A stretch of DNA of 64,000 bases from a bacterium CG_4_9_14_3_um_filter_65_15 (GCA_002790835.1 PFVX01000079.1:3130-67129); one strand, 5' to 3'. Numbered from the stretch's first letter, positions 8,053-60,261 are shown. The notes: a model not told the origin generated them from the letters alone. A program made the numbers and translations.

Positions 8053-8282
8053 AAGACGGGTCGGTGCCCCGCGCCGGGTTGGGAAAAATGGGATGTCGAT
8101 CGTCGCGCCACGTGGAGGCGGCATTCCGCGAGAACCTGAAGTGGGGCATCCTGACTAAGGGGAACTATTTCGGGAGGCTGTTGTCAACCCTTTACCCCTG
8201 CTCGAATACCCCCTCCAAATGACCGGAATTTTCTCGGGTGAATGTTCGCACCTTGGGAAATCCTGCCTGAGAGTTGGTTATT

Positions 8283-10019
8283 ATGAAATCCCTTCACCCC
8301 GCAGTGTTGCTGCTGTTATTGGCCATTACCGCCACCGTGGCCGCAGGTGATGCCCCGGTGAACCGCCAGGTAAACCGGGAGTTGCACGAGGCGGCCAAAG
8401 GCGCGCCCCTGAATCTGGCTGACCTGGTCTTTGCCCTCAACCCCCGCTTGGGCCTGGGCTTTCCTTCCCAGAATGTGGACAACTACTACGTGTTCCCGCT
8501 GTGCGGCATGGGGCTGGTTCGCCTGACTTTGCTCTGGAGTAATTATGAGCCGTCCAGAGGGCAGTATGATTGGAGCGGGTTGGACAACAAGGTCCGGGTC
8601 CTGCAGGACCTCGGGATCGACATCTTCATGACGTTGCAGTCGGATGCCGATTGGGGCGTCGAACCATCGGATTTCCTGGCGGCCAACCACCCCCCCGCCG
8701 ACATGGCCGACTGGACCACATTCATGACGCACCTGGTGCAGCGCTACAACGGTGACGGCGTGGACGACTTGCCGGGCCTGCTCCGCCCGGTGCGCTATTA
8801 CCAGTTGGCCAACGAATGGCCTTCCCCGCAAAACATCCACGGCGGCTGGACCGGCACCATCGACCAGCTGATCGAATTCTTCAACGCTTCCTACGCTGCG
8901 GTCAAGGCCGCCGATCCCTCCGCCACGGTCGTCCTCGGCGGCATCCCTTCCATCGGGCTTGACGCCATGGTGCTCAACGCCGGGCAAGGTAACTACGTGG
9001 CCAGGCAATCGTACAACGAGACGGTCAAGGATTCCCTGACCGTCGCGATCGCCCAGGATCCCCGCATCGCCGAGGCGGTGGCCGTCCGAGAGCGCGTGCT
9101 GGCCGAAAGCCTTTACGACATGGTGGATCTTCACATGTACGGTCCGGTGGAATTCAACCAGTACCGGATCAGCCGCATCCGCCAGAACGTCGGTGACGTG
9201 CCCCTGGTCTCCTCCGAATGCGGCGGGCCGAATCTGGCCTACGATCCGGTCATCACCCCCGAAGAACACTTCCAGACCGCCATGGACATGAATCTCGACG
9301 CCCTGTCCCGAGGCCTGGTCTACACCATGTGGTTGTCCATGTTCGGACAGGAATACGTTCCCGGCATCGGCCCCACCTGGGGCAACTCCCAGCTTCAGCC
9401 CATCGACAAGAACCAGCAACCTACCGGGGGATTCTGGGCCTATCACCTGCTGGCGGCCATGTTGGACGGAATGGACAGCGTGGAAAAACCCGGCCCCGGC
9501 ATCTACATCATCCACCGGTATGACCAGCCCAACATCCATGTGGCCTGGCGGACGGACGCCAACACCACCTACCAGCTCCCGTCCACCGTCCATGCCCAGA
9601 AAATGATCGTGGTCACTTCTGCCCGGCTTGGCACGTACCAATTAGAACCCGTGCCTGCGAACGGGTTGTTGCAACTCACCGGTCCTTTGCCCATCGTGGT
9701 CAGCGAGATCCTTCCCGGAGGCGTCTCCGGAGATTCCGGCCCTCCGCACCCCACCGTGGCCCTCGGCCAGGTCTGCAACTTCCCCAACCCCTTCAACCCC
9801 GCCATGGAAATCCGATTCGTGCTGGGGGAGGACAGCCGGGTTCAGGTCGAAATATTCAACCTGAGGGGACAAAGGATCGCCACGTTGCTGGACAACGAGT
9901 TGCCGGCCGGACCCCACGGTGTTGTGTGGCACGCCGGGCAACAGCCATCGGGGACCTACTTCTACCGCATCACCGCGGCAGGAAACATCACAACCGGGCG
10001 CTGCGAGCTGGTGAAATGA
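8283..10019 (+). CDS. Secreted clan GH-A (TIM-barrel, GH5/GH42-like) glycoside hydrolase with a T9SS/Por-type C-terminal sorting domain
   Basis: Signal peptide MKSLHPAVLLLLLAITATVAA. W..YEPSRGQYDWSGLD, the ANEW acid/base-like motif and SSECGGP (nucleophile region) are present. The C-terminus CNFPNPFNPAMEIRFVL...YFYRI resembles the Por_Secre_tail / FlgD-Ig-like motif. An alternative start at 8274 is possible. Confidence 0.6.
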   Translation: MKSLHPAVLLLLLAITATVAAGDAPVNRQVNRELHEAAKGAPLNLADLVFALNPRLGLGFPSQNVDNYYVFPLCGMGLVRLTLLWSNYEPSRGQYDWSGLDNKVRVLQDLGIDIFMTLQSDADWGVEPSDFLAANHPPADMADWTTFMTHLVQRYNGDGVDDLPGLLRPVRYYQLANEWPSPQNIHGGWTGTIDQLIEFFNASYAAVKAADPSATVVLGGIPSIGLDAMVLNAGQGNYVARQSYNETVKDSLTVAIAQDPRIAEAVAVRERVLAESLYDMVDLHMYGPVEFNQYRISRIRQNVGDVPLVSSECGGPNLAYDPVITPEEHFQTAMDMNLDALSRGLVYTMWLSMFGQEYVPGIGPTWGNSQLQPIDKNQQPTGGFWAYHLLAAMLDGMDSVEKPGPGIYIIHRYDQPNIHVAWRTDANTTYQLPSTVHAQKMIVVTSARLGTYQLEPVPANGLLQLTGPLPIVVSEILPGGVSGDSGPPHPTVALGQVCNFPNPFNPAMEIRFVLGEDSRVQVEIFNLRGQRIATLLDNELPAGPHGVVWHAGQQPSGTYFYRITAAGNITTGRCELVK

Positions 10020-10160
10020 CCGGGATCAGCAGGTCAACCGCCAGAGTTTCGGCGGCCTTGATGCCGCCCGCATAGCCGGCACCTTCCCCGGCAGGATAGA
10101 GGCCCCTGGTGTTGACGCGCTGCAGGTCGGACTCGTTGCGGTTGATGCGCAGCGGCGACG
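9988..10160 (-). pseudogene. 3'-terminal remnant of a COG2509-type FAD-dependent dehydrogenase gene
   Basis: The minus-strand frame encodes ...RVNTRGLYPAGEGAGYAGGIKAAETLAVDLLIPVISPARSARL*, the conserved C-terminal GLYPAGEGAGYAGGI signature. The upstream portion of that frame (through the inverted repeat and gatD) is nonsense with no start. About 450 aa of the gene are missing. Confidence 0.5.
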
Positions 10161-10222
10161 AGGTGCGCGATTCCATCGCCGGAACTGGCAATCGGGGAAG
10201 ATCGAGTTCAACGATCCTGGTA

Positions 10223-10318
10223 CTGGAAGTAGGCCTCCGTCGGCCCTTTGCGAATAATCCGCAGCCGCGCAGCGGCGAGGACATTTCGCAAAGGGCCGAC
10301 GGAGGCCTACTTCCAGTG
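10223..10318. repeat. Perfect 33-bp inverted repeat (two arms separated by a 30-nt loop), predicted to form a long hairpin
   Basis: ACTGGAAGTAGGCCTCCGTCGGCCCTTTGCGAA ... TTCGCAAAGGGCCGACGGAGGCCTACTTCCAGT. The right arm overlaps the last codons and stop of gatD. Coordinates are +/-1. Confidence 0.9.
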
Positions 10319-11698
10319 GGAGGAGATGAACTCGTCCACCTCCGGAATCCCCCCCTGGAACACCAGGTACCCGTTATGGGGCTCCCGCTCGGTGGTCTCG
10401 CCGTTGACGGGGGAGAGCATGATGCGCTGGACCTCGTCATGGTCCCGGCTCTGGCCCAGGGCCCAGCCCAGCTTCACGTAGGCCACCTCCGGCAGCATGT
10501 TCGCCGCCGGGACCACGCCCAGTTCCATGATCTCCCGCCCGGTCTCGTACACGTACATCTGCACGTAGCCCCACAGGGTCTGGACCGTCATGTAGACGTG
10601 CACGCCGGCGTCGCGGGCGCGTTGCAGGGCCGGGTACAGGGGCTTGTTCACGTGGCCGAGGCCGGTGCCGGCGATGATGATGCCCTTGTATCCGTTGTCG
10701 ATCAGGGAGTCGATGATGTCGGGCTTCATGTTGGGGTAGTAGTAGACCAGGGACACCCGGTCGTCGAAGACGTCGATCAGGGTGACCTGGCCGTCGTCGC
10801 GCCGCCGGTTGTAGTCGGTGCGGAACGGCGTGACCCCGCTTCCGTCGATCTTGCCCAGGGGGATGTCGCTGAGGGTGCGGAAGGTCGAGCGATAGCTGGA
10901 GTGCATCTTGCGCACGCGGGTGCCCCGGTGCAGCAGGCCGTACTCGTCGCTGGTGGGCCCGAACATGCAGACCATGACCTCGGCGATGTCGCTGGTGGCG
11001 GCGGTGCGGGTGGCGTTGATGAGGTTGATGGCCGCGTCCGAACTGGGGCGGTCGCTGCTGCGCTGGCTGCCCACCATGACGATGGGCACCGAAGGATCCT
11101 GCACCATGAAGCTGAGCGCGGCTGCGGTGTGGTGCATGGTGTCGGTGCCGTGCCCGACCACGATGCCGGTCACGCCGCCGGCAATCTCCCGGGCGATGGC
11201 GCGTGCGGTGCCGATCCACTGCTCCGGACCCATGTTCTCGCTGAACACGCCGTACAGCTTCTCGGTCTCCATGTTGCAGATGTCCGCCAGCTCCGGCACC
11301 GAACCGTACAGCTCGCCGGGGCTGAAGGCGGGAATCACCGCACCGGTGCGGTAGTCGAGGCGGCTGGCGATGGTGCCGCCGGTGCCCAGCAGCTTGACCC
11401 GCGGCTTGCCGGGGTCCACAGGGAATGCCTTCTCGGGGATCTGGTAATTGGCGACCTTGCGGCCGAGCACGCTGATGGATTCGACGGTGTCGCAGCGGAC
11501 GCCGATGTTGTATCCGGTGTCCAGCTTCAACACGATGTGCAGTGCGTCGGCGGTTTCGCTGCGCGGCAGGATGAGCCCGGAAAAATCGCCGCGGTTCGTG
11601 TGCAGTGTGACCTGGCTCCAAACCGGGGCCTCTTCCCGCTGCAACAGATCCAGGGTGGGGATGCGGTAGCCTTTGAAGTCTGCGGCGGTTTGGCTCAC
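10307..11698 (-). CDS. gatD: Glu-tRNA(Gln) amidotransferase subunit D (archaeal type; N-terminal domain plus a type-I L-asparaginase domain)
   Basis: 463 aa with a GTG start overlapping the gatE stop. The asparaginase motifs VKLLGTGGTIAS and GIVVGHGTDTM are present. An N-terminal domain of about 100 aa precedes the asparaginase fold, as in GatD. It is adjacent to gatE. Confidence 0.8.
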   Translation of the reverse strand: MSQTAADFKGYRIPTLDLLQREEAPVWSQVTLHTNRGDFSGLILPRSETADALHIVLKLDTGYNIGVRCDTVESISVLGRKVANYQIPEKAFPVDPGKPRVKLLGTGGTIASRLDYRTGAVIPAFSPGELYGSVPELADICNMETEKLYGVFSENMGPEQWIGTARAIAREIAGGVTGIVVGHGTDTMHHTAAALSFMVQDPSVPIVMVGSQRSSDRPSSDAAINLINATRTAATSDIAEVMVCMFGPTSDEYGLLHRGTRVRKMHSSYRSTFRTLSDIPLGKIDGSGVTPFRTDYNRRRDDGQVTLIDVFDDRVSLVYYYPNMKPDIIDSLIDNGYKGIIIAGTGLGHVNKPLYPALQRARDAGVHVYMTVQTLWGYVQMYVYETGREIMELGVVPAANMLPEVAYVKLGWALGQSRDHDEVQRIMLSPVNGETTEREPHNGYLVFQGGIPEVDEFISSHWK

Positions 11699-13632
11699 GA
11701 CGTGCGCTCCCGGTTGCGGCCCTTGATCCAGCTGCGGACGGTGCGTCCGGGCACCCGCCCCAGCACACCCGGCATCACCCGGCCCATCAGGACCAGGTCA
11801 CGCTGCAGGGGGCTCTCAGGCAGTTCACCCGCGGGAATCGCCTGCAGAAGGTCTTCGACCGCGGCGCGGGCCTTTTCCCGGGGCCACGGCTCCAGCGGCT
11901 CGGATTCGGCGCTCCAGACACCCTCGGGAATCAGGTCTCCCGAGACCAGTTTGCGCACCGTATCGGCCCACCAGGGGCCGGCGGCGGCCGTCTGCAGGGG
12001 CCGCGGGCAGGATCGATCCAGCAGCAGGGAGGCGAGCTGGCTGGCGGTAAGGGCGGGGGTGTCGGACTCCTGCAGGATGGGCAGCAGGGCGGCGAAAAGA
12101 TCCCAGGCCCGGTGGCGACCGAGTCGGGCGGCCAGGTCGGGCCCCACGCCGGCCGTGCGGGCGATGTCTTCCCGCTTCCAGGGTGTCAGGGGAAGGCTGT
12201 CGTGGATATGTTCCAGCCGCTCGTCGCTCAGGCCGATGGGCGGCAGGTCGGTGTCCGGATACATGCGGTCGGCTCCCGGCAGCACCCGTTCGAAACCGTT
12301 GGTGCCGTCGTCCAGTGCCTGGCGGGTTTCCTCAGGCACGCCGACGAAGGCCTCACGGGCGCGAATGAGCACTTCGCTGACCGCGGTGGCGGCGTCCCGC
12401 TCGGAGCCCCAGACGAGGATGATGGGCACTTCGGGGCCGACGCGGCAGGTCTTGGCCACCCGCTCCCATTCACCGCTGCTGAGGGTGGGGACGTCCTGGG
12501 TGGACATCACCAGGTTGGGCAAGGTGTCCAGGCAGGCGATCACCCGGATGCGGTCGCTGAATTCCTTGAGAAAGCCCGTGCGGGGCTGGGTCTGCACCTG
12601 CAGCAATCCCTGGAAACCGGGCAGGGGCACGGCCATCACCGTGGCGCCCTTCTCCACGGCCTTGCCGATGAAGCGGCAGGCGGTGCCGCGCACGGCCGAG
12701 GTGACGTCGTTTCCGCCCTGGGGCAGGTATCCGGGTTTTGCGCCCCGATGTTCCAGTTCCCGGGCGATGGCCACGAGGGTGCGCTGACGCAGGGCCTCGT
12801 TGTGGGTCAACCGGGGGATGGCGCGCAGGCAGGGCACGCCCTTGATCTCGATGCGCGTGCCGCCGGTGACCGAGACGTTGACGTCCTGCCGGGCGGCGCC
12901 GCTGCCGGTGCGCACCAGACCGGTGGCCCGCACCAGGTGGCGCAGGACCTGGCCCACGGCCATCGCTTCGCGGGGGGTCGTCATGTCCGGGTCCGTCACC
13001 GACTCGATGAGCGGCATGCCCAGCCGGTCGGTGCGGTAGGTGCGCACGTGGCCCGCATCGGATACCTCACGGCAGGAATCCTCTTCGATGCTCAACTGGC
13101 GGATGTGGATCGACTTTTCGCCGCAGGGAATGTCGCCGTCGGTGCCGATGATGGCGGTGCGCTGGAATCCGGTGGGAATGCTGCCGTCCAGGTATTGCTT
13201 GCGGGTGATGTGGACCTCGCTGACCACGTTGCAACCCAAAAGCATGGTGATGGCGATGCTGATGTCCAGGGCCTGGTCGTCCATCTCGAAGGGCGGGGCG
13301 TCGTCCATCTCGTAGGTGCAGACGGTGTCCTTGTTCAGATGGTAGATGATGTCCTTGCGGGTCTTGAATTCCATCAGCGCCGTGCCGTCGTACTCGCCCA
13401 TTTCCGAGAGGGTGGGGCGCATGTGCCGCAGCACCTCGGCCTGGTGCTCGCCCTGGTTGTAAACCCCGGCGGGACACCGGCAGAAGAGCTTGCGGCGGGT
13501 CAGGAGCTGCTGGTGGATTTCCAGACCGCAGCGGAAGCCCAGATCGGCGTATTCGGCGTCCGATAGCGTCCCGAACAGGGGCAACGGGCCGCCTAGCCAG
13601 GAGTCGCTGAAGGCGGAGTGATCTCGTTCCAT
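11695..13632 (-). CDS. gatE: Glu-tRNA(Gln) amidotransferase subunit E (archaeal type, GatB-like)
   Basis: 645 aa from the ATG at 13632 (GGAAG ribosome-binding site). YADLGFRCGLEIHQQLLTRRKLFCRCP is the GatE/GatB cradle-domain signature. It also has an internal insertion domain and a C-terminal YqeY-like helical tail. Confidence 0.8.
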   Translation of the reverse strand: MERDHSAFSDSWLGGPLPLFGTLSDAEYADLGFRCGLEIHQQLLTRRKLFCRCPAGVYNQGEHQAEVLRHMRPTLSEMGEYDGTALMEFKTRKDIIYHLNKDTVCTYEMDDAPPFEMDDQALDISIAITMLLGCNVVSEVHITRKQYLDGSIPTGFQRTAIIGTDGDIPCGEKSIHIRQLSIEEDSCREVSDAGHVRTYRTDRLGMPLIESVTDPDMTTPREAMAVGQVLRHLVRATGLVRTGSGAARQDVNVSVTGGTRIEIKGVPCLRAIPRLTHNEALRQRTLVAIARELEHRGAKPGYLPQGGNDVTSAVRGTACRFIGKAVEKGATVMAVPLPGFQGLLQVQTQPRTGFLKEFSDRIRVIACLDTLPNLVMSTQDVPTLSSGEWERVAKTCRVGPEVPIILVWGSERDAATAVSEVLIRAREAFVGVPEETRQALDDGTNGFERVLPGADRMYPDTDLPPIGLSDERLEHIHDSLPLTPWKREDIARTAGVGPDLAARLGRHRAWDLFAALLPILQESDTPALTASQLASLLLDRSCPRPLQTAAAGPWWADTVRKLVSGDLIPEGVWSAESEPLEPWPREKARAAVEDLLQAIPAGELPESPLQRDLVLMGRVMPGVLGRVPGRTVRSWIKGRNRERTS

Positions 13633-13676
13633 GGTTACTTCCGCGCTCGGGTGGAGATGGCGTCCGGCCCAAGATA

Positions 13677-13692
13677 TTGACCCCGTGGTCAA
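13677..13692. promoter_or_regulatory. Candidate Rex operator (16-bp palindrome TTGACC-CCGT-GGTCAA) in the gatE / rex divergent region. A second partial TGTGAA half-site lies at about 13770-13790.
   Basis: Perfect 6-bp inverted arms with a 4-nt spacer, matching the TTGnnn-n4-nnnCAA architecture of Rex boxes. It lies 140 nt upstream of rex, next to a TTGACG-17-TATTCT promoter-like element (13732-13760). Confidence 0.4.
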
Positions 13693-13831
13693 AGCTCCAG
13701 GAATAGTTGGCTCTGCGGCGGAATTGCCATCTTGACGAGAGATTTCCCGTCGGATATTCTGAATGTGAATCTGGTAACATTCCCAGGCCCACTGCCAGGG
13801 CAATCTGTTTATACCTTAACGAGGTGATGTT

Positions 13832-14554
13832 GTGGTGCGTAAGAAGCGCAGAGGTTGCGATGTCCCCGAGGCGACCATTCATCGCCTTCCCCTGTACCTG
13901 GAGAAACTCAAGTTGTTGCAGGCCATCGGGGTGGAAGACGTCTCCAGCCGCCAGTTGGCCGAATCCCTGGATATCAAGGCGAGCCAGTTGCGGCACGATT
14001 TTCATTATTTCGGCGGCTTCAGCCGGCCCGGCCGGCCCTATCAAGTCGAAAAATTGGTGCCGGCCCTGGAACAGATCATCGGGATCGACGAACCGGTGCC
14101 GACCATCATCGTCGGAGCCGGCCACCTGGGCCAGGCCCTGGCCAATTATCAAAATCTGGGCCTGCAGGGTTTCCCCCTCCACGGCATTTTCGACGTCAAC
14201 CCGCGTCTGATCGGGCTGGAAATCCGCGGGCAGGCCATCCGGGACCTGGCGGATATGCCGGACATCGTCAAGCGTGACCACATCCTGATGGGGATCATCA
14301 CCGTGCCGGCGGCCAACGCCCAGCAGGTCGCCGACCGCATGGTCGAGGCCGGCATCGTGGGGATCTTCAACTTTGCGCCGACGGATCTGAAAGTGCCCGA
14401 AGGGGTTGTGGTGCGGAACGAGCGCATGGCCGTGGGCATCATGGCCCTGAGCTTCAAGGTCAAGTGCATCCTGGAATCCCGGTTGTCCGAGTCACCAGCG
14501 GATGAGGTCGGCGCCCCAGGTAAAACCACTGCCGAAGGCGAGGGTGACGACTAG
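13832..14554 (+). CDS. rex: Redox-sensing transcriptional repressor Rex
   Basis: The wHTH N-terminus IHRLPLYLEKLKLL...VSSRQLAESLDIKASQLRHDF and the Rossmann motif IIVGAGHLGQALANY are present. GTG start with a GAGGTGA ribosome-binding site. The 3' end overlaps the convergent fabH remnant. Confidence 0.85.
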   Translation: MVRKKRRGCDVPEATIHRLPLYLEKLKLLQAIGVEDVSSRQLAESLDIKASQLRHDFHYFGGFSRPGRPYQVEKLVPALEQIIGIDEPVPTIIVGAGHLGQALANYQNLGLQGFPLHGIFDVNPRLIGLEIRGQAIRDLADMPDIVKRDHILMGIITVPAANAQQVADRMVEAGIVGIFNFAPTDLKVPEGVVVRNERMAVGIMALSFKVKCILESRLSESPADEVGAPGKTTAEGEGDD

Positions 14555-17733: not shown

Positions 17734-18783
17734 ATGCACGGGATTGTCGGCTACGGCGCATATGTGCCGCGCTTCAGGATCAAGGCTGAGCAGATCGCCA
17801 ACCAGTGGGGCGCCGATGCGGACGCCTTCAAGAAGGGGCTGCTGCTGGAGGAGAAAACAGTCCCGGGGCCGGACGAGGACACCATCACCATCAGCGTGGC
17901 GGCGGCCCGGGATGCGGTGACCCGCGCGGGAATCGATCCCCAACTCATCGGAGCCTGCTACATCGGGTCCGAAAGCCATCCCTACGCGGTCAAGCCCTCG
18001 GGTACGGTGCTGATCGACGCCCTGGGGATCGGCCCCGATTGCCATGTGGCCGATTTCGAGTTCGCCTGCAAGGCGGGCACCGAGGCCATGTACGTGGCCT
18101 ACTCCCACGTCAAATCCGGCGAGATGCCCTACGCCCTGGGCATCGGGGCGGACACCAGCCAGGGCGCGCCCGGTGACGCCCTGGAGTACACCGCGTCGGC
18201 CGGTGGCTCGGCCTTCGTCATGGGCAGCGAGGGTGTGGTCGCCGAGATCCTCCACACCTACTCCTTCACTTCCGACACGCCGGATTTCTGGCGCCGAGAG
18301 GGGGAGTTCTATCCTCGGCACGCCGGACGTTTCACCGGGGAGCCCGCCTACTTCCATCACGTGCTCAGCTCGTGCCAAGGGATCCTCGACCGCAGCGGCA
18401 TGAAACCCGAGGACTTCCGCTACGCCGTTTTCCACATGCCCAACGGCAAGTTTCCCCTGCGGGCGGGCAAGACCATGGGCTTCACCAAGGAACAGCTCGA
18501 ACAAGGCTGGGTGGTGAACCTCATGGGCAACACCTACAGCGGTTCGTCGCCTACGGGCCTGGCGGCCTGCCTGGACGAGGCCAAGCCGGGCGATAACATC
18601 CTGATCACTTCCTTCGGCAGCGGCGCCGGTTCGGATTCCTTCATCCTGCGGGCGACCGATCGTCTGCCCGAGGTGCAGGGCCTGGCGCCCAAGGTGCGCG
18701 ACCAGCTGGCCGACCGCCGCATCCATCTGGATTACGGCAAGTACGTGGCATACCGCGGCAAGATCCGCATGAACGAGGTCTAG
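17734..18783 (+). CDS. Hydroxymethylglutaryl-CoA synthase (archaeal/UPF0219 type)
   Basis: 349 aa. [16 protein letters not shown]...[13 protein letters not shown] (catalytic Cys)...[10 protein letters not shown]...[11 protein letters not shown]. Confidence 0.85.
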
Positions 18784-18797
18784 AAAGGGGGCGGAAC

Positions 18798-19955
18798 ATG
18801 AGAGACGTAGCTGTCATCGGCACCGGCCTGACGAACTTCGGCGAACTCTGGGACATCCCCCTGCGCGACCTGTTCGCCATGGCGGCGGCCGACTGTCTGG
18901 AAGACGCGGGGGTGGAGCGCAGCCAGATCCAATCCGCGTACATCGGCTGCATGGCCAGCGGGATGTTCGTGGCCCAGGAACACCTGGCCTCCATCCTGAC
19001 CGATTACGCGGGCCTGGGGGGCATCGCCGCAACCCGGGTGGAATCGGCCTGCGCCTCCGGTGGTGCGGCTTTCCGCGCGGCCTACCTGGAGGTGGCCAGC
19101 GGGGCGAGCGATTTCGTGCTGGCAGGCGGGGTGGAGAAGATGAACGACGGCGCCGACGCCACCGTGTGTCTGGCCGCCGCCGCGGACCAGGAGTACGAGG
19201 TCTTCCACGGGGTGACCTTCCCCGGCCTGTACGCCATGATCGCCCGGGCGCACATGGCGAAATACGGCACCACGCCCGAACAGATGGCCGCCGTGGCGGT
19301 CAAGAACCACGCCAACGGGGCCCTCAACCCCAAGGCCCAGTTTCCGCGGGAGATCACCCTGCAAACGGTGCTGGGTGCGGTCCGGGTGGCAGAGCCGCTG
19401 GGATTGTTCGACTGCTCGCCCGTGACCGACGGTGGAGCCTGCGTGCTCCTGGCGCCGGTGGAGGTGGCCCGGAAGCTGGGCAAACCCATCGTGAAGATCA
19501 TCGGATCGGGGCATGCCACCGATGCCATCGCCCTGCACGATCGGGCCGATTATTCCACCATACCGGTGGTCGGTCTGGCGGCCCAGCGGGCCTTCGCCCA
19601 GGCGGGACTCGGAATCAAGGACATCGATTTCGCCGAGGTCCACGACTGCTTCACCATCGCCGAGATCGTTTGCAGCGAGGAGCTGGGCGCCTTCGAACGC
19701 GGGCAGGGCGGCCCGGCCGCCGCCGCGGGCGAGACGGCCCGGGACGGTTCGTTCCCCATCAACACGTCGGGCGGTCTGAAGAGCAAGGGCCATCCGGTGG
19801 GGGCCACGGGAATCGCGCAGATCTGCGAGATCCACAGCCAGCTCACGGGCCGGGCCGGAGGGCGCCAGCTGAAGAACCCGCGCCGTGGCCTGGCGCAGAA
19901 CATGGGCGGTTCCGGCGGCAGCTGCACCGTGCACATCCTGGAGGTGGAGTCATGA
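18798..19955 (+). CDS. Thiolase (acetyl-CoA C-acetyltransferase, SCP-x/archaeal type)
   Basis: 385 aa. [12 protein letters not shown] (active Cys) and the C-terminal [17 protein letters not shown]...[13 protein letters not shown]. Confidence 0.85.
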
Positions 19956-34602: not shown

Positions 34603-37600
34603 TTACGGATTCAGGAGCCGCAACAGCTCCCGCACCTCGTAGCCGGCCGCTTTGGCCTTTTGCAACAGCACCGAGCGGGCGTCAAGCAGGGCCACGAAAT
34701 CGACATCCGATTCGTGGGCCAGAGCTGCGGACGTCACCACCTGCAACCAATCATCGAGCCGCTCGGCGGAGAGATAGACTGTTTGCTCGTGCGTGTTGAT
34801 TCCCAGCAATTCCGCCGCCGCCGGGTCGGTCAGGATGTCCGCCAACCAGGAAATTTTTCCCTCAGCCAGGAAACGATAACTGTCTGCATGAGCGGCCAGC
34901 AGGCGAGCAGAAGCCGTGGCCATGGCCGCGGCGTGATCGTGCCCCAGCCAATCCTTCAGGATCGCTCCCATGTCCTCGGTGACCAGGTCCCGGCCCGGTC
35001 CATCCAGGCCGATCTTTTCTGAGCCGGTTGTGCCCAACAGTTCGGCCAGGTAGATGACCTGCAGGCAACGGCTGTGGGGGAGGTTCTCCAGCAGCGCTAT
35101 CAGCTCGGTTCTGGAGCCGCGCCCCAGGCCGACGGGGATCTTCATTCGGGGCAAGGCGCGCAGGTGGGTGGCCAGGGTTACCAGGTTTTCCGGCAGATCG
35201 CGGGGAACCTTGGCGGGCTCCGGTTTCTGGTCGGTGGCTCCGGCGTATTCCAGCCACGCCAGGATCTCCGGCGTCATCCACGTGCGCACCCGGGACAGGA
35301 CCGGATCCAGCTCGCGCCGCAACAATTCCCGTCGCAGGTCCGGTGCACCGCGGCCCTGCAGGGAGTCTGCCAGGTCCGCCCAGCGGCCGGGGTCGCCGTC
35401 CAGGAGGGTCATCTGGATGAAGGCCCGGTACTGGTAACCGTGCAGGTCGGTGTGCAGGCCCTGTTCGCACAGTTCGCGTCCGCCTCGCAGGTATTGCAGG
35501 CCGTCGGCGTGGTCGGTCAGGGCGTACCAGGAAGTGCCGGAGCAATCCAGGCCGAGGGCGCCGGCCAGGGTGACGCTTTGCAGGTCGGGATGGTCGGCGC
35601 TGCCGCGGTTGATGGCGGTGGAGGTGCGGATGCGCCCTGCGGTCCCGTCGTAGGCGTTGTTGTAGATGACCAGGACCCGCTCGGTTCCCGATCCGTTGAC
35701 GAAGGCGAAGACGTTCTCGTCCACCCAGCCGCCTTCGCTTTCGAAATCGAAGAGCGCGAAGTTCTCGGACCCGCTGAACAGGTGGCGCCGGCGCAGCAGC
35801 GGAAAGATCGCGCGCTCGTGCCGGTCGACCATCTCCCGGTCGATCTTTTCGTCCCAGTAGGCCCGGCGGTATTCCATGCCGTATTTCTCGGTGAAGCCCT
35901 CGATCTGGCCGTGCCCGATCATGGGCAGACCGGGCAGGGTGGCCAGCAACACCATGCACCCGAAGTACTTGTCGCCGCGACCGAACTGCTCGACGGCCGT
36001 GCGCTCGTCGGGATTGTTCATGAAGTTGACGAAGCGCTGCAGGATGCCGGGACTGAATTCCAGCACGTTCTTGAGGGTCTGCCTGTACTTCTGGTTGTCC
36101 TCCATCTTGAGCATGTTCATGAAGGCCGAGTTGTAGACGCGGTGCATGCCGAGGGTGCGGACGAAGTAACCCTCCATGAGCCAGAACGCCTCGGCCAGCA
36201 GCAGGGTGTCGGGCGCCTCGGCGGCCACGCGGTCGACGACCTCCCGCCAGAACTCCGCCGGGAAGACCCGGTCGAACTCCTCGCGTGACATGCCGTGTTC
36301 GGCGCGAGAAGGGATGGCGCCGGCGTCGCCGGGCGCAGGGAACCACAGCCGCTGGAAGTGCTTCTTGGCCAAGGTCATGGCCGCGTCGAAACGGATGATG
36401 GGGAAGCGGCGGGCCACGTCCAGAATCACCCGGATGACCGCCTCGCGCACTTGGGGCAACAGGAAGTTGAGCTGGGCGGTGTCGTTCCAGGGCATGCTGG
36501 TTCCGTCGTTGCCGTGGTAGATGTATCGGACCCGACCGGTGTTGTCGTCGCGTCGCTCGAAGACCACCGCGGCGTCGCGCTTGTCCCAGTAGCCGTCCTC
36601 CAGTCGCACCGACACGCCGGGCGATCCGCACAGATCCTCGCAGCCGAAGCGGTAGGCGGGATAGGGCGGATGATCCAGTTGCAGGAAATACTCCGGATGT
36701 TCCACCACCCAGCGGCTGTCGATCCCCATGTGGTTGGGCACCATGTCGCTGGCCAGGCGGATGCCGCGGCGGCCGGCGCGTTCGCTCAGGTTCCGCCAGG
36801 CCTCCTCGCCGCCCAGATCGGAGGCGATGGCGTAGTCGGCCAGGGAGTAGGCGCTGGCGGCCGCGTCGGGATTGCCCAGCCATTGCTTGATGGTACGCGA
36901 GGCGGCCGAGCGTTCCCATAACCCGATGAGCCACAATCCGTTGATCCCCCAGTGGGCCAGGCGGTCCAGCTCCTCGTCCGGGATGTCGGCGAGGGTTCGC
37001 AGCGGTCGTCCGTACCACTTGGAGAGCTGATCCAACCAGACGGAGACGCTCTTGGCCATGAGCACGACATTGGCCATCCAGTCGGCGTCGCGGCTGAAGG
37101 CCTCGGGTTCGTCACGCGCCGGCCCCGGGCCGAACTCCAGCACGGGCGCGGGCCCCGGCTCGCCCCCGCGGGCGACATCGACTTCCTGCAACACGTCCAG
37201 GGCGAACTGCAGCCTCTCGCGCAACTCGTCCGGCAGCAGGTGGGCCCAGTGATCCCGGATCCAGGCGAGCTGGCCGGCCAGGGAGTCGGGGCTCGCCAGC
37301 AGCGGAGCACGCAGCAGGTGCGGCAGCGAAACGCCCTCGGTGCCGACGACCTCGAACTCGGTCAGGTACTTTTCCAGCCCGGTCACGAAGGGCAGGTACG
37401 AGACCCGGCGGCGCAGCTCCCCGTCGTGGAACAGGTGCTCGGCCTCCGCCGCGGCGGGGTTGTTGACGTTCAGGAACAACAGGAACATTTCCAGCGCGGC
37501 GAGGTCCCGCCCGTTGAGGTCGTCCAGGGCGCCGGCAAGGAACTGTTCGCCGGTCAGGTCCGCGCGCTTGACCTCCAGGGGCGGGAACAGGTCGACGAAG

Positions 37601-37956
37601 GTCGTCATGACGGCGTCGACCGCGTCGGGTCCCAGCCGCTGGGTGGCCCACTGGCGACAGCGGCTCAGGCCGCCGGGGTTCTCGATGCGGAAATAGCGCA
37701 GGGCGACCCACTTCAGCACCTGATTCAGGGTGCGCAGGGCGAGAAGCGTTTCGGCGTGGGTGGGCGGCCGGCCGGCCGTCTTGCGGCCGGCATCGTCGTT
37801 GACCGCCGCGGCCAGTTTGCGGATGGCGTACGCCGCCGCTCCGTCCTGCTCCTTTCCCGGAACCAGGGAGGCGATGCCGTACCGCAGCCAGGCCTGATCC
37901 GCCAGGGGAAAGTCGAACACGAAATACTTTGGCGCAGAACGAGTTGGGTCCGCCAT
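34603..37956 (-). CDS. Large multidomain GH13 (alpha-amylase family) glycoside hydrolase
   Basis: The GH13 conserved regions DMVPNHMG, IIRFDAAMTLAKKH (catalytic Asp), EAFW and NNPDERT are present. The start ATG at 37956 is uncertain (an alternative is at 38007). The ORF-track ORF extends to 39426 only as antisense of the neighbouring gene. Confidence 0.7.
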   Translation of the reverse strand: MADPTRSAPKYFVFDFPLADQAWLRYGIASLVPGKEQDGAAAYAIRKLAAAVNDDAGRKTAGRPPTHAETLLALRTLNQVLKWVALRYFRIENPGGLSRCRQWATQRLGPDAVDAVMTTFVDLFPPLEVKRADLTGEQFLAGALDDLNGRDLAALEMFLLFLNVNNPAAAEAEHLFHDGELRRRVSYLPFVTGLEKYLTEFEVVGTEGVSLPHLLRAPLLASPDSLAGQLAWIRDHWAHLLPDELRERLQFALDVLQEVDVARGGEPGPAPVLEFGPGPARDEPEAFSRDADWMANVVLMAKSVSVWLDQLSKWYGRPLRTLADIPDEELDRLAHWGINGLWLIGLWERSAASRTIKQWLGNPDAAASAYSLADYAIASDLGGEEAWRNLSERAGRRGIRLASDMVPNHMGIDSRWVVEHPEYFLQLDHPPYPAYRFGCEDLCGSPGVSVRLEDGYWDKRDAAVVFERRDDNTGRVRYIYHGNDGTSMPWNDTAQLNFLLPQVREAVIRVILDVARRFPIIRFDAAMTLAKKHFQRLWFPAPGDAGAIPSRAEHGMSREEFDRVFPAEFWREVVDRVAAEAPDTLLLAEAFWLMEGYFVRTLGMHRVYNSAFMNMLKMEDNQKYRQTLKNVLEFSPGILQRFVNFMNNPDERTAVEQFGRGDKYFGCMVLLATLPGLPMIGHGQIEGFTEKYGMEYRRAYWDEKIDREMVDRHERAIFPLLRRRHLFSGSENFALFDFESEGGWVDENVFAFVNGSGTERVLVIYNNAYDGTAGRIRTSTAINRGSADHPDLQSVTLAGALGLDCSGTSWYALTDHADGLQYLRGGRELCEQGLHTDLHGYQYRAFIQMTLLDGDPGRWADLADSLQGRGAPDLRRELLRRELDPVLSRVRTWMTPEILAWLEYAGATDQKPEPAKVPRDLPENLVTLATHLRALPRMKIPVGLGRGSRTELIALLENLPHSRCLQVIYLAELLGTTGSEKIGLDGPGRDLVTEDMGAILKDWLGHDHAAAMATASARLLAAHADSYRFLAEGKISWLADILTDPAAAELLGINTHEQTVYLSAERLDDWLQVVTSAALAHESDVDFVALLDARSVLLQKAKAAGYEVRELLRLLNP

Positions 37957-38055
37957 GGAACAAAGATCCCTTCGGTCGTGCTTCCCTCGAGAGGTCGCAT
38001 CCATTATCGTTGGGTTTTCGCAGATGGCAAGATCACACTGGGCAAGGAGCGCGTC

Positions 38056-39846
38056 GTGAAGAAGATGATCCGGATCGGCAACGCCGGGGGATATTGGGGC
38101 GATGACATGGATGCCTTGCGCCGACAGCTCGTCGGCGGCCCTCTCGACTACATCACCATGGATTTTTTGGCCGAGATCACCATGTCGATCCTGCGCAAGC
38201 AACAGCTGCAGAATCCCGAGCTCGGCTACGCCCGCGATTTCCTGACCCAGCTGGAAACCTGCCTGCCCCTGATCGTCGAGAAGAAAGTGCGGGTCATCAA
38301 CAATGCCGGCGGCATGAATCCGGTCGGGCTGGGCCGGAAGATCCGTGCCATGGCACGCCGCATGGAGCTGGACCTGAAAGTGGGCGTGGTCTACGGGGAC
38401 GACATCAGCAATCGTCTGTACGAATTGACGGCCGCGGGTGAGAAGTTCACCAACATGGAGACCGGCGAAGCCTTCACCGGAGTGCGCAACCGCGTCACCT
38501 CGGCCAACGTGTATCTGGGGGCCGAACCGGTGGTCGCGGCCCTCGACGCCGGGTGCGACATCATCGTCACCGGTCGGGTCACCGACACCGGGATCACCCT
38601 GGCGCCCATGATCCACGAATTCGGCTGGTCCATGACCGACTGGGACAAGATGGCGGCGGGGATTATCGCCGGCCACATCATCGAGTGCGGCGCCCAGGGC
38701 AGCGGGGGAAACATCACCGACTGGCAGGAAGTCCCCTCCTTCGACAACATGGGCTATCCCATCATCGAGATGCAGCGCGACGGCGATTTCCGCGTCACCA
38801 AGCACAAGCGCACCGGCGGCCTGGTGAGCGAGAAATCCGTCAAGGAGCAGCTCGTCTACGAGATGGGGGATCCGGGGCAGTACATTTCGCCGGACGGGGT
38901 GGCGTTCTTCAACACCATCGAGGTCAAGCAGGACGGAAAGGACCGGGTACGGGTCAGCGGTGCGCGCGGCGGACCGGCGCCCTCCTCGTTCAAGGTGTCG
39001 ATGGCCTTTCAGGACGGCTGGAAAGCGGAGGGGGAGATTCTGCTCTGCGGACCGAACATCGAGGACAAGGCCGAAACGGTGGCGGAAACATTCTGGCGCA
39101 AGGTGGGCCACGAGTTCGAAGACACCGCCACCGCAATGGTGGGTGCGGGCTCCATCTGGCCGGATCGGCTCGCCGATTACAGCCCCCACGAGATCTTCCT
39201 GCGCTTCGGGGTCCGCGACCACGACGTGTCCAAGGTCCAGGATTTCGGTAAGACCCTGCCGGCCATGATCCTGGCCGGGCCTTCGGGCATGGCGGCCAGC
39301 ACCCGGGGGCGCCCCCGGCCTCAGCAGGTGGTCTCCTACTGGCCGGCTCTCATGCGCCGCGACGGAGTCTCGGCCAAGGTGCTGACCCTGGGCACGGACT
39401 GCAGCGAGAAGTTCCAGGAGATCCACTTTCCGGTGCGCGGCGAGGTTGATGAGCCCGTGGCCAACCGGATCAGCCGGCGGCCTGTCCGTCGCGATTGGCC
39501 GGCCTCGACAACCGAGGTGCCCCTGAGCCGATTGTGTTACGCGAGGAGCGGGGACAAGGGGGATACCTGCAACATCGGCGTCCTGGCCCGTTCTCCCGGG
39601 GCCTACGAATGGCTGCGGGGATTTCTGACGGCGGGCCGGATCAAGCGTTACTTCGGGGCCAAGGTGCGGGGCAAGGTCACGCGCTACGAACTCGACAACC
39701 TCCAGGGTTTGAACTTCCTGCTGGCCGGGGCCCTCGGTGGTGGCGGAACCACCAGCCTGCTGGTCGATCCCCAGGGAAAAACCATGAGCCAGGCTCTCTT
39801 GCAGATGAAGGTCCGGGCGCCGCGCGCCCTGCTCAGAGGGTTGTGA
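38056..39846 (+). CDS. AtuA-like (acyclic terpene utilisation; DUF1446 plus DUF4387) protein
   Basis: MIRIGNAGGYWGDD...DYITMDFLAEITMSIL...IVTGRVTDTGI, and the C-terminal LCYARSGDKGDTCNIGVLARS. The GTG start has an AAGGAG ribosome-binding site 6 nt upstream. Confidence 0.7.
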   Translation: MKKMIRIGNAGGYWGDDMDALRRQLVGGPLDYITMDFLAEITMSILRKQQLQNPELGYARDFLTQLETCLPLIVEKKVRVINNAGGMNPVGLGRKIRAMARRMELDLKVGVVYGDDISNRLYELTAAGEKFTNMETGEAFTGVRNRVTSANVYLGAEPVVAALDAGCDIIVTGRVTDTGITLAPMIHEFGWSMTDWDKMAAGIIAGHIIECGAQGSGGNITDWQEVPSFDNMGYPIIEMQRDGDFRVTKHKRTGGLVSEKSVKEQLVYEMGDPGQYISPDGVAFFNTIEVKQDGKDRVRVSGARGGPAPSSFKVSMAFQDGWKAEGEILLCGPNIEDKAETVAETFWRKVGHEFEDTATAMVGAGSIWPDRLADYSPHEIFLRFGVRDHDVSKVQDFGKTLPAMILAGPSGMAASTRGRPRPQQVVSYWPALMRRDGVSAKVLTLGTDCSEKFQEIHFPVRGEVDEPVANRISRRPVRRDWPASTTEVPLSRLCYARSGDKGDTCNIGVLARSPGAYEWLRGFLTAGRIKRYFGAKVRGKVTRYELDNLQGLNFLLAGALGGGGTTSLLVDPQGKTMSQALLQMKVRAPRALLRGL

Positions 39847-58227: not shown

Positions 58228-58559
58228 TCTTGCCCCAGGCCTGCGGTTCGTCGGCCACGCTGAGCGCGCCGCACACGATATCCCCGAAGACGATCGATTT
58301 TCCGCCGCCGGTCTTGGCCGGGAAGGTGAACATGTCCTCCCAGCCGCTGCCCTCTGCGGGGCGGGGGCTGGCGGACCTGCAGGACTACTACCGGATGCTG
58401 TCCGGGTCTGCGCACCCCGACCGGGCCTTGGCCCTGGCCCGGGCCCAGCGGCACATGATCGCGGGCGAGGGTGCGGCTGCGGCCGGAGGATTGGATAGCG
58501 GATTTCCCGGTTTCTGGGCCGGCTTCGTGCTCAGCGGGAACGGGTCCGCCGGTCCCTGA
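58212..58559 (+). pseudogene. C-terminal remnant of a CHAT (caspase-like) domain gene
   Basis: ..[10 protein letters not shown].. resembles the CHAT catalytic-Cys region (LVVLSACETA). ..VLAGKVNMSSQPLPSAGRGLADLQDYYRML.. resembles [29 protein letters not shown]. ..GFWAGFVLSGNG resembles HPYYWAPFVLIG. The frame is open only from 58212, and the N-terminal His-containing half is absent. Confidence 0.45.
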
Positions 58560-58656
58560 CCATTGGTCCCCGCCTACCGGGGATTTGGTGTCCGGGCGCA
58601 TGTCCTGTTACATTGCCGCGAAACCATCGGCCAAAATTCCCTGTCTCGAGGATGCC

Positions 58657-60261
<1,605 letters not shown>

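Follow-up and report, generated by a model that had tools for sequence, protein, structure and literature searches.

A GatDE-type amidotransferase operon that probably belongs to the native gene content of a Krumholzibacteriota bacterium

Introduction

Does a bacterial genome that carries the genes of an archaeal amidotransferase owe them to a recent transfer, or do they belong to its ordinary gene content? This question is raised by a 64,000-nucleotide stretch of DNA from the bacterium CG_4_9_14_3_um_filter_65_15 (GCA_002790835.1, PFVX01000079.1:3130-67129), referred to below as the window and used for all coordinates. It contains two genes, gatE and gatD, for the subunits of a GatDE-type Glu-tRNA(Gln) amidotransferase. 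GatDE has been described as limited to archaea (PMC2330236 of 2008, PMC2811023 of 2009, PMC8007984 of 2021 and PMC9499178 of 2022) and was termed an 'archaeal signature protein' (PMC2330236). On this point the original prediction, made from the sequence of the window, reproduced the published view, on which these four papers and reviews from 2008–2022 agree.

The same prediction took the surroundings of the pair as consistent with a horizontally inserted island. Our analysis leads to a different reading: gatE and gatD are probably a native, vertically inherited operon of a Krumholzibacteriota bacterium that encodes a working GatDE-type tRNA-dependent amidotransferase. The restriction of the family to archaea is not upheld. 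The contig is bacterial, and a scan of a genome collection yielded at least 589 encoded relatives, the best 80 of which are all bacterial.

Results

Identity of the proteins and their catalytic residues

In the hidden Markov model check, both proteins scored above curated cut-offs, which confirms the family assignment that had been proposed. Window GatE reached 469.6 bits with NF003107 (cut-off 456) and 389.6 bits with TIGR00134 (cut-off 319.55), the family match spanning only profile positions 3–504 of 630. Window GatD reached 501.6 bits with TIGR02153 (cut-off 324). Pfam detected GatB_N in GatE and, in GatD, a GatD_N domain ahead of Asparaginase and Asparaginase_C. The best solved structures were the GatDE complexes of P. 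abyssi and M. thermautotrophicus (GatE against 1zq1_C, E=5e-95; GatD against 1zq1_A, E=7e-121), and the closest matches of the predicted GatE structure were likewise GatE chains, of 1zq1 and 2d6f.

The alternative that the pair is a bacterial GatB followed by an ordinary asparaginase was ruled out. GatB is a paralogue of GatE with a homologous cradle and YqeY tail and the same overall chemistry (PMC2330236). In bacterial GatCAB, however, GatB has no insertion domain, and ammonia is released by the amidase GatA, together with GatC, whereas the window pair has an asparaginase-type GatD and no GatC. As an identity for window GatE, GatB was rejected: GatB models gave at most 126 bits against cut-offs of at least 315 (126 vs 338 for the best of them), and the insertion domain is present. 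A Pfam scan of 42 open reading frames (ORFs) of the window, which are most of its predicted genes, revealed no GatA, GatB or GatC, and no glutaminyl-, asparaginyl- or glutamyl-tRNA synthetase (GlnRS, AsnRS, GluRS).

All catalytic residues that were checked are in place. By alignment, H40, E183 and E210 of window GatE correspond to the Mg ligands His15, Glu157 and Glu184 of M. thermautotrophicus GatE, which are essential, as their mutation inactivates the enzyme (PMC2330236). The three residues are invariant in 50 GatE homologues and retained in all main bacterial groups sampled. In GatD, T109 (GTGGTIASR), T185 and D186 (HGTDTM) and K264 (RVRKMHSS) align with P. abyssi GatD; the threonine nucleophile T109 and the other three residues are conserved in 71 bacterial GatD.

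The noncatalytic parts of GatE could be assigned as well. Its insertion aligns continuously with archaeal GatE and gives a weak Pfam match to GAD (E=0.03). In the structural model this domain matches aspartyl-tRNA synthetase (AspRS) structures, and Ignavibacteria-type homologues carry PF02938. The C-terminal 165 residues have no Pfam match even at E<=10. A profile built from 16 GatE C-termini matched GatE 2d6f (4e-7) and residues 562–629 of 1zq1 (7e-4), followed by residues 284–477 of GatB 3h0l (2.5e-3) and YqeY 1ng6 (0.02). This region is modelled as all-helical, with block means of the predicted local distance difference test mostly at 86–95. At the N terminus, GatE has a conserved extension of ~25 residues in which W12, L13, P18 and G21 are invariant.

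In its architecture, the window pair has the same two-subunit domain arrangement as archaeal GatDE (M. thermautotrophicus 2d6f; P. abyssi 1zq1), with the same Mg ligands and the same Thr/Asp/Lys residues for catalysis, at ~35–36% identity for GatE and ~44–45% for GatD. It agrees with GatDE in all sequence-based marks of the family apart from the GxxAxG tail motif. It differs from archaeal GatDE in its bacterial host, in the N-terminal extension, in a shortened GatE tail that lacks the GxxAxG motif, and in an extra C-terminal extension of GatD that the GatD examined from Thermococcus, Thermoplasmata and Bathyarchaeia do not have. In Asgard GatE, unlike that of the window, Pfam detects both GAD and GatB_Yqey, and the tail has the AxG motif; Asgard proteins show 35% (GatE) and 45–46% (GatD) identity to those of the window.

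A bacterial loop signature beside the first tRNA base pair (VRTG vs archaeal V(K/R)RG) was proposed from a small alignment. It was dropped, as a larger sample shows VRRG in Ignavibacteria-type proteins and VKKV in Asgard ones.

Organization of the gatE and gatD genes

Both genes lie on the minus strand with exactly the boundaries originally predicted (Table 1). The GTGA overlap at their junction indicates translational coupling, also in line with that prediction. Wherever a single contig holds both genes, gatD is found downstream of gatE, and in most cases the two are directly adjacent. Judging from the overlap, the constant gene order and the fusion protein described below, GatD and GatE appear to be obligate partners.

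The fusion, P0122, was found outside the window on a Logan contig of 12,837 bp (related proteins and loci are cited here by P and L numbers). It is a single polypeptide of 943 aa in which GatE residues 1–474, that is, the cradle and insertion without the helical and tail domains, are joined to a full GatD with 61% identity to window GatD. P0122 is either a natural GatE-GatD fusion or a frameshift artefact.

The promoter-like element upstream of gatE is kept in the window and in L001, L003 and L007 in the form (C/T)TGGAG, 18 nt, TATC(T/A)T. We infer that this conserved block acts as the gatED promoter.

Table 1. Coordinates of gatE, gatD and the features around them in the window
Feature	Position	Strand	Description
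gatE	11695..13632	-	645 aa; ATG at 13632, TGA stop at 11695-11697; cradle (kinase/transamidase), AspRS-like insertion, helical domain, divergent YqeY-like tail
gatD	10307..11698	-	463 aa; GTG start, TAG stop; GatD N-terminal domain, type I asparaginase (ammonia-releasing subunit), C-terminal extension of ~22 residues
Overlap of gatE stop and gatD start	11695..11698	-	GTGA, 4 nt; junction ...ACG TCG TGA, with the GTG inside
Putative ribosome-binding site	13638..13642	-	GGAAG, Shine-Dalgarno-like, 6 nt upstream of the gatE ATG; read from the sequence
Promoter-like element of gatED	13671..13700	-	CTGGAG, 18 nt, TATCTT
Variable slot between gatD and cysE	8053..10306		Holds repeat, stub and a secreted-protein gene
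Inverted repeat	10215..10324	.	Arms 10215-10254 and 10285-10324, 40 nt, 93% complementary
FAD-protein stub	9991..10203	-	71-residue translation; remnant of a COG2509-type FAD-dependent protein, outside the operon
Slot cargo gene	8274..10019	+	Convergent; product glycoside-hydrolase-like, its end a type IX secretion sorting tail (weak match)
rex	13832..14554	+	Redox-sensing repressor, divergent from gatED; NF003995 221 bits (cut-off 126)
rex promoter-like site	13732..13760	+	TTGACG, 17 nt, TATTCT
Rex-like palindrome	13764-13779	+	TGTTACCAGATTCACA; once in window, just downstream of the rex-facing -10

Native operon or inserted island

The original prediction bounded the supposed island by an inverted repeat with a gene stub on one side and a Rex-box-like palindrome on the other. 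Repeat, stub and palindrome all exist, and the family is archaeal in the literature; it is from these facts that a newly arrived archaeal island could be argued. Composition, synteny and the surroundings of the three features all contradict this, and we consider a recent insertion extremely improbable.

First, the composition of the pair is native. The GC content of gatE and gatD lies inside the range of the other window genes, as does their GC content at third codon positions (0.84 and 0.90; other genes 0.75–0.92). Their codon-usage distances (0.083 and 0.101) fall within the 0.043–0.129 spanned by 24 other window genes. Compared with its flanks, the segment 10307–13632 thus shows no deviation.

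Second, the pair is common in related bacteria in the same context, with synteny on both sides. Other genomes of Krumholzibacteriota keep the same order of rex, gatE-gatD and cysE-cysK, and rex stands beside gatE in L001 and L003–L008. The wider neighbourhood, with an SSF symporter, SPOR, a fabH-like gene and rex, and with cysE and cysK on the opposite side, is kept in L001, L003, L007 and L008; its thiolase and HMG-CoA synthase (HMGCS)-like genes are shared with L001 only. Relatives with the same neighbours have 63–86% GatE identity and are labelled Krumholzibacteriota or bear unreliable automatic labels. The pair was also found on complete bacterial chromosomes of 3.8–4.2 Mb. The nearest homologues are bacterial, not archaeal. 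No integrase was detected among the scanned neighbouring genes, a tRNA scan of the window found no tRNA genes, and the Rfam scan of the window was empty. The host character of the window was recognized correctly from the start: it encodes an extracytoplasmic function (ECF) sigma factor, SPOR and FabH-like proteins, a TetR regulator, a type IX secretion tail and a histidine kinase.

Third, the repeat and the stub belong to a segment that varies on its own. In L001, cysE lies within ~15 nt of gatD and the slot is empty; neither the inverted repeat nor the cargo gene is present at this position. Because cysE there directly follows gatD, the variable piece is the slot downstream of gatD, and the scar belongs to it. 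The L003 slot (L003:13291-15940) holds two other ORFs: one is GNAT-like, judging from its sequence, and the other is peptidase-like and contains the motif HEXXH. Since the cargo differs among L001, L003 and the window, repeat and stub mark turnover of the slot rather than the arrival of gatED.

As RNA, the inverted repeat would fold with −101.7 kcal/mol (z=−14.9) into a hairpin that lies 3′-terminally in the gatED transcript. The right arm reaches into gatD and covers its stop and final five codons; the left arm repeats, in inverted form, the final 18 nt of gatD together with the 22 nt downstream. The hairpin was also considered as an intrinsic terminator and rejected, as no T-run follows it and no terminator was called at the site.

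The stub proved to be a genuine orphaned 3′ end of an FAD-dependent gene, matching residues 486–528 of the 549 residues of the FAD protein VP0956 (PDB 3nlc_A) at E=2.8e-10, close to its C terminus. It has no Pfam or NCBIfam match and no homologue in any related locus. A repeat abutting a truncated FAD gene looks like the foldback scar of a deletion that removed most of that gene. The cargo gene has weak Pfam matches, below or at the cut-offs (Por_Secre_tail 23 bits, cut-off 27; Glyco_hydro_42 21.1, cut-off 21). By sequence reading, the C terminus of the long L003 ORF is of the type IX secretion kind and resembles that of the window cargo ORF.

Seven contigs, each from a separate assembly, encode exactly the GatD of the window. 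At the three sites displayed, one of them on a contig of 261,912 bp, it lies beside the same stub-sized ORF and convergent 578-aa gene. Because it recurs on independently assembled contigs, the slot arrangement is not an assembly artefact.

Fourth, the palindrome has another explanation. It is present as described and sits at the rex-facing promoter-like site, not at an island border. The intergenic region between rex and gatE (window 13731–13779) holds two divergent promoter-like sites; the CGTCAAG block conserved in relatives is the −35 (TTGACG) of the rex-facing one. The motif TGTTAC-N4-TT(G/C)ACA recurs near rex in L001, L003, L004, L005 and L007, and the rex product carries the Pfam domains Put_DNA-bind_N and CoA_binding. 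The palindrome is best read as a putative rex operator, which would allow rex autoregulation. Repeat, stub and palindrome are unrelated to the acquisition of gatED, and the window pair itself consists of ordinary resident genes; the interest lies in the clade, not in this locus.

Distribution in bacteria

The carriers of the bacterial relatives are labelled as Krumholzibacteriota, Ignavibacteria/Melioribacteraceae, Aminicenantes, KSB1, Phycisphaerae/Planctomycetes, Cloacimonetes, Myxococcota and Bacteroidota. Among the top 120 matches to a Melioribacter-like GatE no isolate is named; all are metagenomic sequences or metagenome-assembled genomes. NCBI and JGI pipelines already name such bacterial proteins GatE and GatD. 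In the literature searched, the coverage of which is incomplete, we found no paper on the bacterial clade. The bacterial GatDE genes are long resident; their clade, which extends over hundreds of species of uncultured bacteria, appears to be uncharacterised.

Within the main bacterial clade, GatD identity averages 77% (minimum 67%), as compared with 38% for archaeal representatives. A clade this shallow points to strong constraint, later spread between phyla, or both. Clustering of flanking ORFs across phyla revealed nothing conserved beyond gatE and gatD, and no synthetase gene linked to them.

Origin of the bacterial clade

When the representatives of 50%-identity clusters were searched exhaustively, 490 GatD clusters were obtained at E<=1e-30. 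In neighbour-joining trees, every GatD encoded in a bacterial genomic context falls into a single clade (93.5% bootstrap unrooted, 92% with asparaginase outgroups), which includes the main group, P0121 (L081), P0178 (represented by cluster member P0425, locus L085) and P0123 (L083). Its neighbours are P0125, P0126, P0127 and P0162, with 71–80% support. In these trees bacterial GatD is nested within archaeal GatD as a single clade.

The tree was rooted with two asparaginase outgroups and 200 bootstrap replicates. Bacterial and Asgard-type GatD group together in 79.5% of replicates and archaea excluding bacteria are monophyletic in 0 of 200, figures from a distance-based tree in which the attachment of the outgroup may suffer from long-branch attraction.

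Two of the neighbours of the bacterial clade are archaeal by source or context. P0125 comes from a Sigynarchaeota archaeon, and its GatE is closest to those of Hod-, Prometh-/Loki- and Hermodarchaeota. A member of the P0162 cluster lies among genes for fibrillarin, Nop5 and ribosomal protein L37ae. A C-terminal extension of GatD (REPxNGYLxFQGGxPEV in bacteria) is common to bacterial and Asgard-type GatD: the window shares it with P0125 (L082), P0126 and P0162, whereas representatives of Thermococcus, Thermoplasmata and Bathyarchaeia lack it.

The order of the genes tells the same story. That gatE precedes gatD is correct, but this departure from the usual archaeal order is not a bacterial inversion, since the nearest archaeal relatives share it: gatD directly follows gatE in L082 (Sigynarchaeota) and in the archaeal L086, in the latter with a 4-nt overlap. 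The L086 GatD (L086:8001-9821) carries a C-terminal archease fusion, unlike that of the window.

The most economical history that fits these data is a single old transfer of the operon from an archaeon to a bacterium. The gatE-gatD operon would have entered bacteria once, long ago, from an Asgard-type archaeon that already had this order, and would then have diversified within several mostly uncultured bacterial phyla, with probable movement between them.

Alternatively, GatDE might have been present in the last universal ancestor and been retained by only a few phyla of bacteria, so that no transfer would be needed. Earlier phylogenetic work suggested a GatDE in the universal ancestor, according to a passage of PMC9499178 that cites Sheppard and Soll 2008, and the internal branches of the bacterial clade are deep (P0121, P0123, P0178). 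Such a vertical relic is nevertheless very unlikely. The asparaginase root fell on the bacterial stem in 0 of 200 replicates, against the 79.5% for grouping with Asgard-type proteins; the distribution is patchy over unrelated phyla; and GatD of the main clade shows very little depth when set against archaea.

Predicted function

By analogy with the archaeal enzyme, the window pair is most likely a Glu-tRNA(Gln) amidotransferase. A GatD dimer would hydrolyse free Asn or Gln by means of its threonine nucleophile and release ammonia, which would travel through an internal tunnel to GatE. There, Glu-tRNA(Gln) supplied by a non-discriminating GluRS would be bound, the glutamate side chain would be phosphorylated with Mg-ATP, and amidation would yield Gln-tRNA(Gln).

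Several observations weigh against this assignment and the history proposed for it. Archaeal GatDE reads A1-U72, and bacterial tRNA(Gln) has U1-A72 instead (PMC2330236); because of this difference, the substrate must differ in an identity element. The GxxAxG tail motif of archaeal GatE has been implicated in tRNA discrimination (PMC2811023). Its AxG part is present in Asgard archaea and Pyrococcus and missing in every bacterial GatE sampled, and the tail of Krumholzibacteriota GatE is shortened, with deletions, and falls below Pfam detection. No tRNA-Gln gene was found in the window or in 60 related loci, and neither a GatB paralogue nor tRNA-Gln in the 1.35 Mb of window and related-locus sequence in total. 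The bacterial carriers seen are metagenome-assembled genomes throughout. Finally, the GatD trees are neighbour-joining trees of cluster representatives, few of which bear a taxon label.

To these must be added two deep bacterial lineages with apparently dead sites, L085:5671-12657 and L083:502-3829. The GatD of P0123 (GAGGALASR, TGVATM) lacks the threonine nucleophile and the HGTDT motif, and P0178 is similar. In L085 GatE the Mg-binding His motif is lost, AVVIRQPL standing in place of GLEIHQQL. In both loci asnA, for aspartate-ammonia ligase, follows gatD, so that the short contig L083 shares the gatD-asnA layout of L085. These pairs may be pseudo-enzymes or may have changed their function. 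As far as the sequences indicate, loss or change of function does occur within the bacterial GatDE clade.

A further variant is seen in the sister lineage P0121, in which the YqeY-like tail of GatE (L081:8057-9922) apparently lacks its end, and with it the motif MGxVMxxxRGR. Its neighbours in L081 are an LPS (lipopolysaccharide) heptosyltransferase gene and two-component genes.

It is conceivable, then, that the pair has left tRNA and serves as a regulated asparaginase or glutaminase, or amidates another carboxylate. The loss of the tail motif and the shortened Krumholzibacteriota tail would suit such a role, as would tail-less forms such as L081 GatE and the P0122 fusion, and the dead active sites found beside asnA in some lineages. 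We nonetheless regard it as unlikely for the window. Its lineage keeps all catalytic residues of both subunits as well as the insertion, helical and tail domains, the only known role of which is to bind tRNA and GluRS. Archaeal GatD, moreover, has no glutaminase activity when Glu-tRNA(Gln) is absent (PMC2330236), and GatD is under very strong purifying selection in all these phyla, which fits an essential role in translation.

If the pair is a Glu-tRNA(Gln) amidotransferase, it may still stand beside GatCAB, either in an archaeal-style split (GatDE for Gln, GatCAB for Asn) or as a condition-specific backup. The split of labour is the rule in archaea without AsnRS (PMC2330236, PMC2943598). The kept insertion domain is predicted to exclude AspRS, from which a Glu-specific enzyme would be expected, and the conserved position next to rex might be a sign of conditional expression. 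On the other hand, bacterial GatCAB normally carries out both reactions, which makes a second enzyme redundant, and the Rex-like operator lies ~64 nt upstream of the gatED −35, a placement that suits the rex promoter. Coexistence is quite possible, though it is not what we would expect.

A bolder proposal goes beyond the resident, working amidotransferase that we favour. After one acquisition from an Asgard-type source, GatDE would have displaced GatCAB and GlnRS in several uncultured phyla (Krumholzibacteriota, Ignavibacteria relatives, Aminicenantes, Phycisphaerae and others), where Gln-tRNA(Gln) would now be made mainly or solely by GatDE, with its tail retuned to bacterial tRNA(Gln). In this full form we consider it doubtful.

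Other features of the window

The sole aminoacyl-tRNA synthetase among the scanned window ORFs is a cysteinyl-tRNA synthetase (CysRS; 58471–60261, plus strand). At 17734–19955 (plus strand) an HMG-CoA-synthase-like/FabH-like protein is encoded next to a Thiolase_C_1-type thiolase. The pair resembles the archaeal arrangement of acetoacetyl-CoA thiolase and HMGCS and has 86–90% identity to its counterpart in L001. At 34603–39846, each strand carries a very long ORF with coding-like third-position GC, and the two overlap: one of 1607 aa with only a weak alpha-amylase match (34603–39426, minus strand) and one of 964 aa (36952–39846, plus strand).

Discussion

Reviews up to 2022 have drawn on the restriction of GatDE to archaea in discussing the last universal ancestor, and the co-evolution of GatDE with archaeal tRNA(Gln) has been cited to explain why glutaminyl-tRNA synthetase never entered archaea. 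A bacterial GatDE clade that looks catalytically intact suggests that the enzyme can cross between domains. It would also offer a natural experiment, in which an amidotransferase has had to adapt anew to a tRNA whose first base pair is reversed.

For annotation, this means that glutamine decoding in these uncultured phyla should not be scored by GatCAB and GlnRS alone. If GatDE has indeed displaced GatCAB and GlnRS there, this would overturn both its status as an 'archaeal signature' and the lock-in argument for the archaeal pathway.

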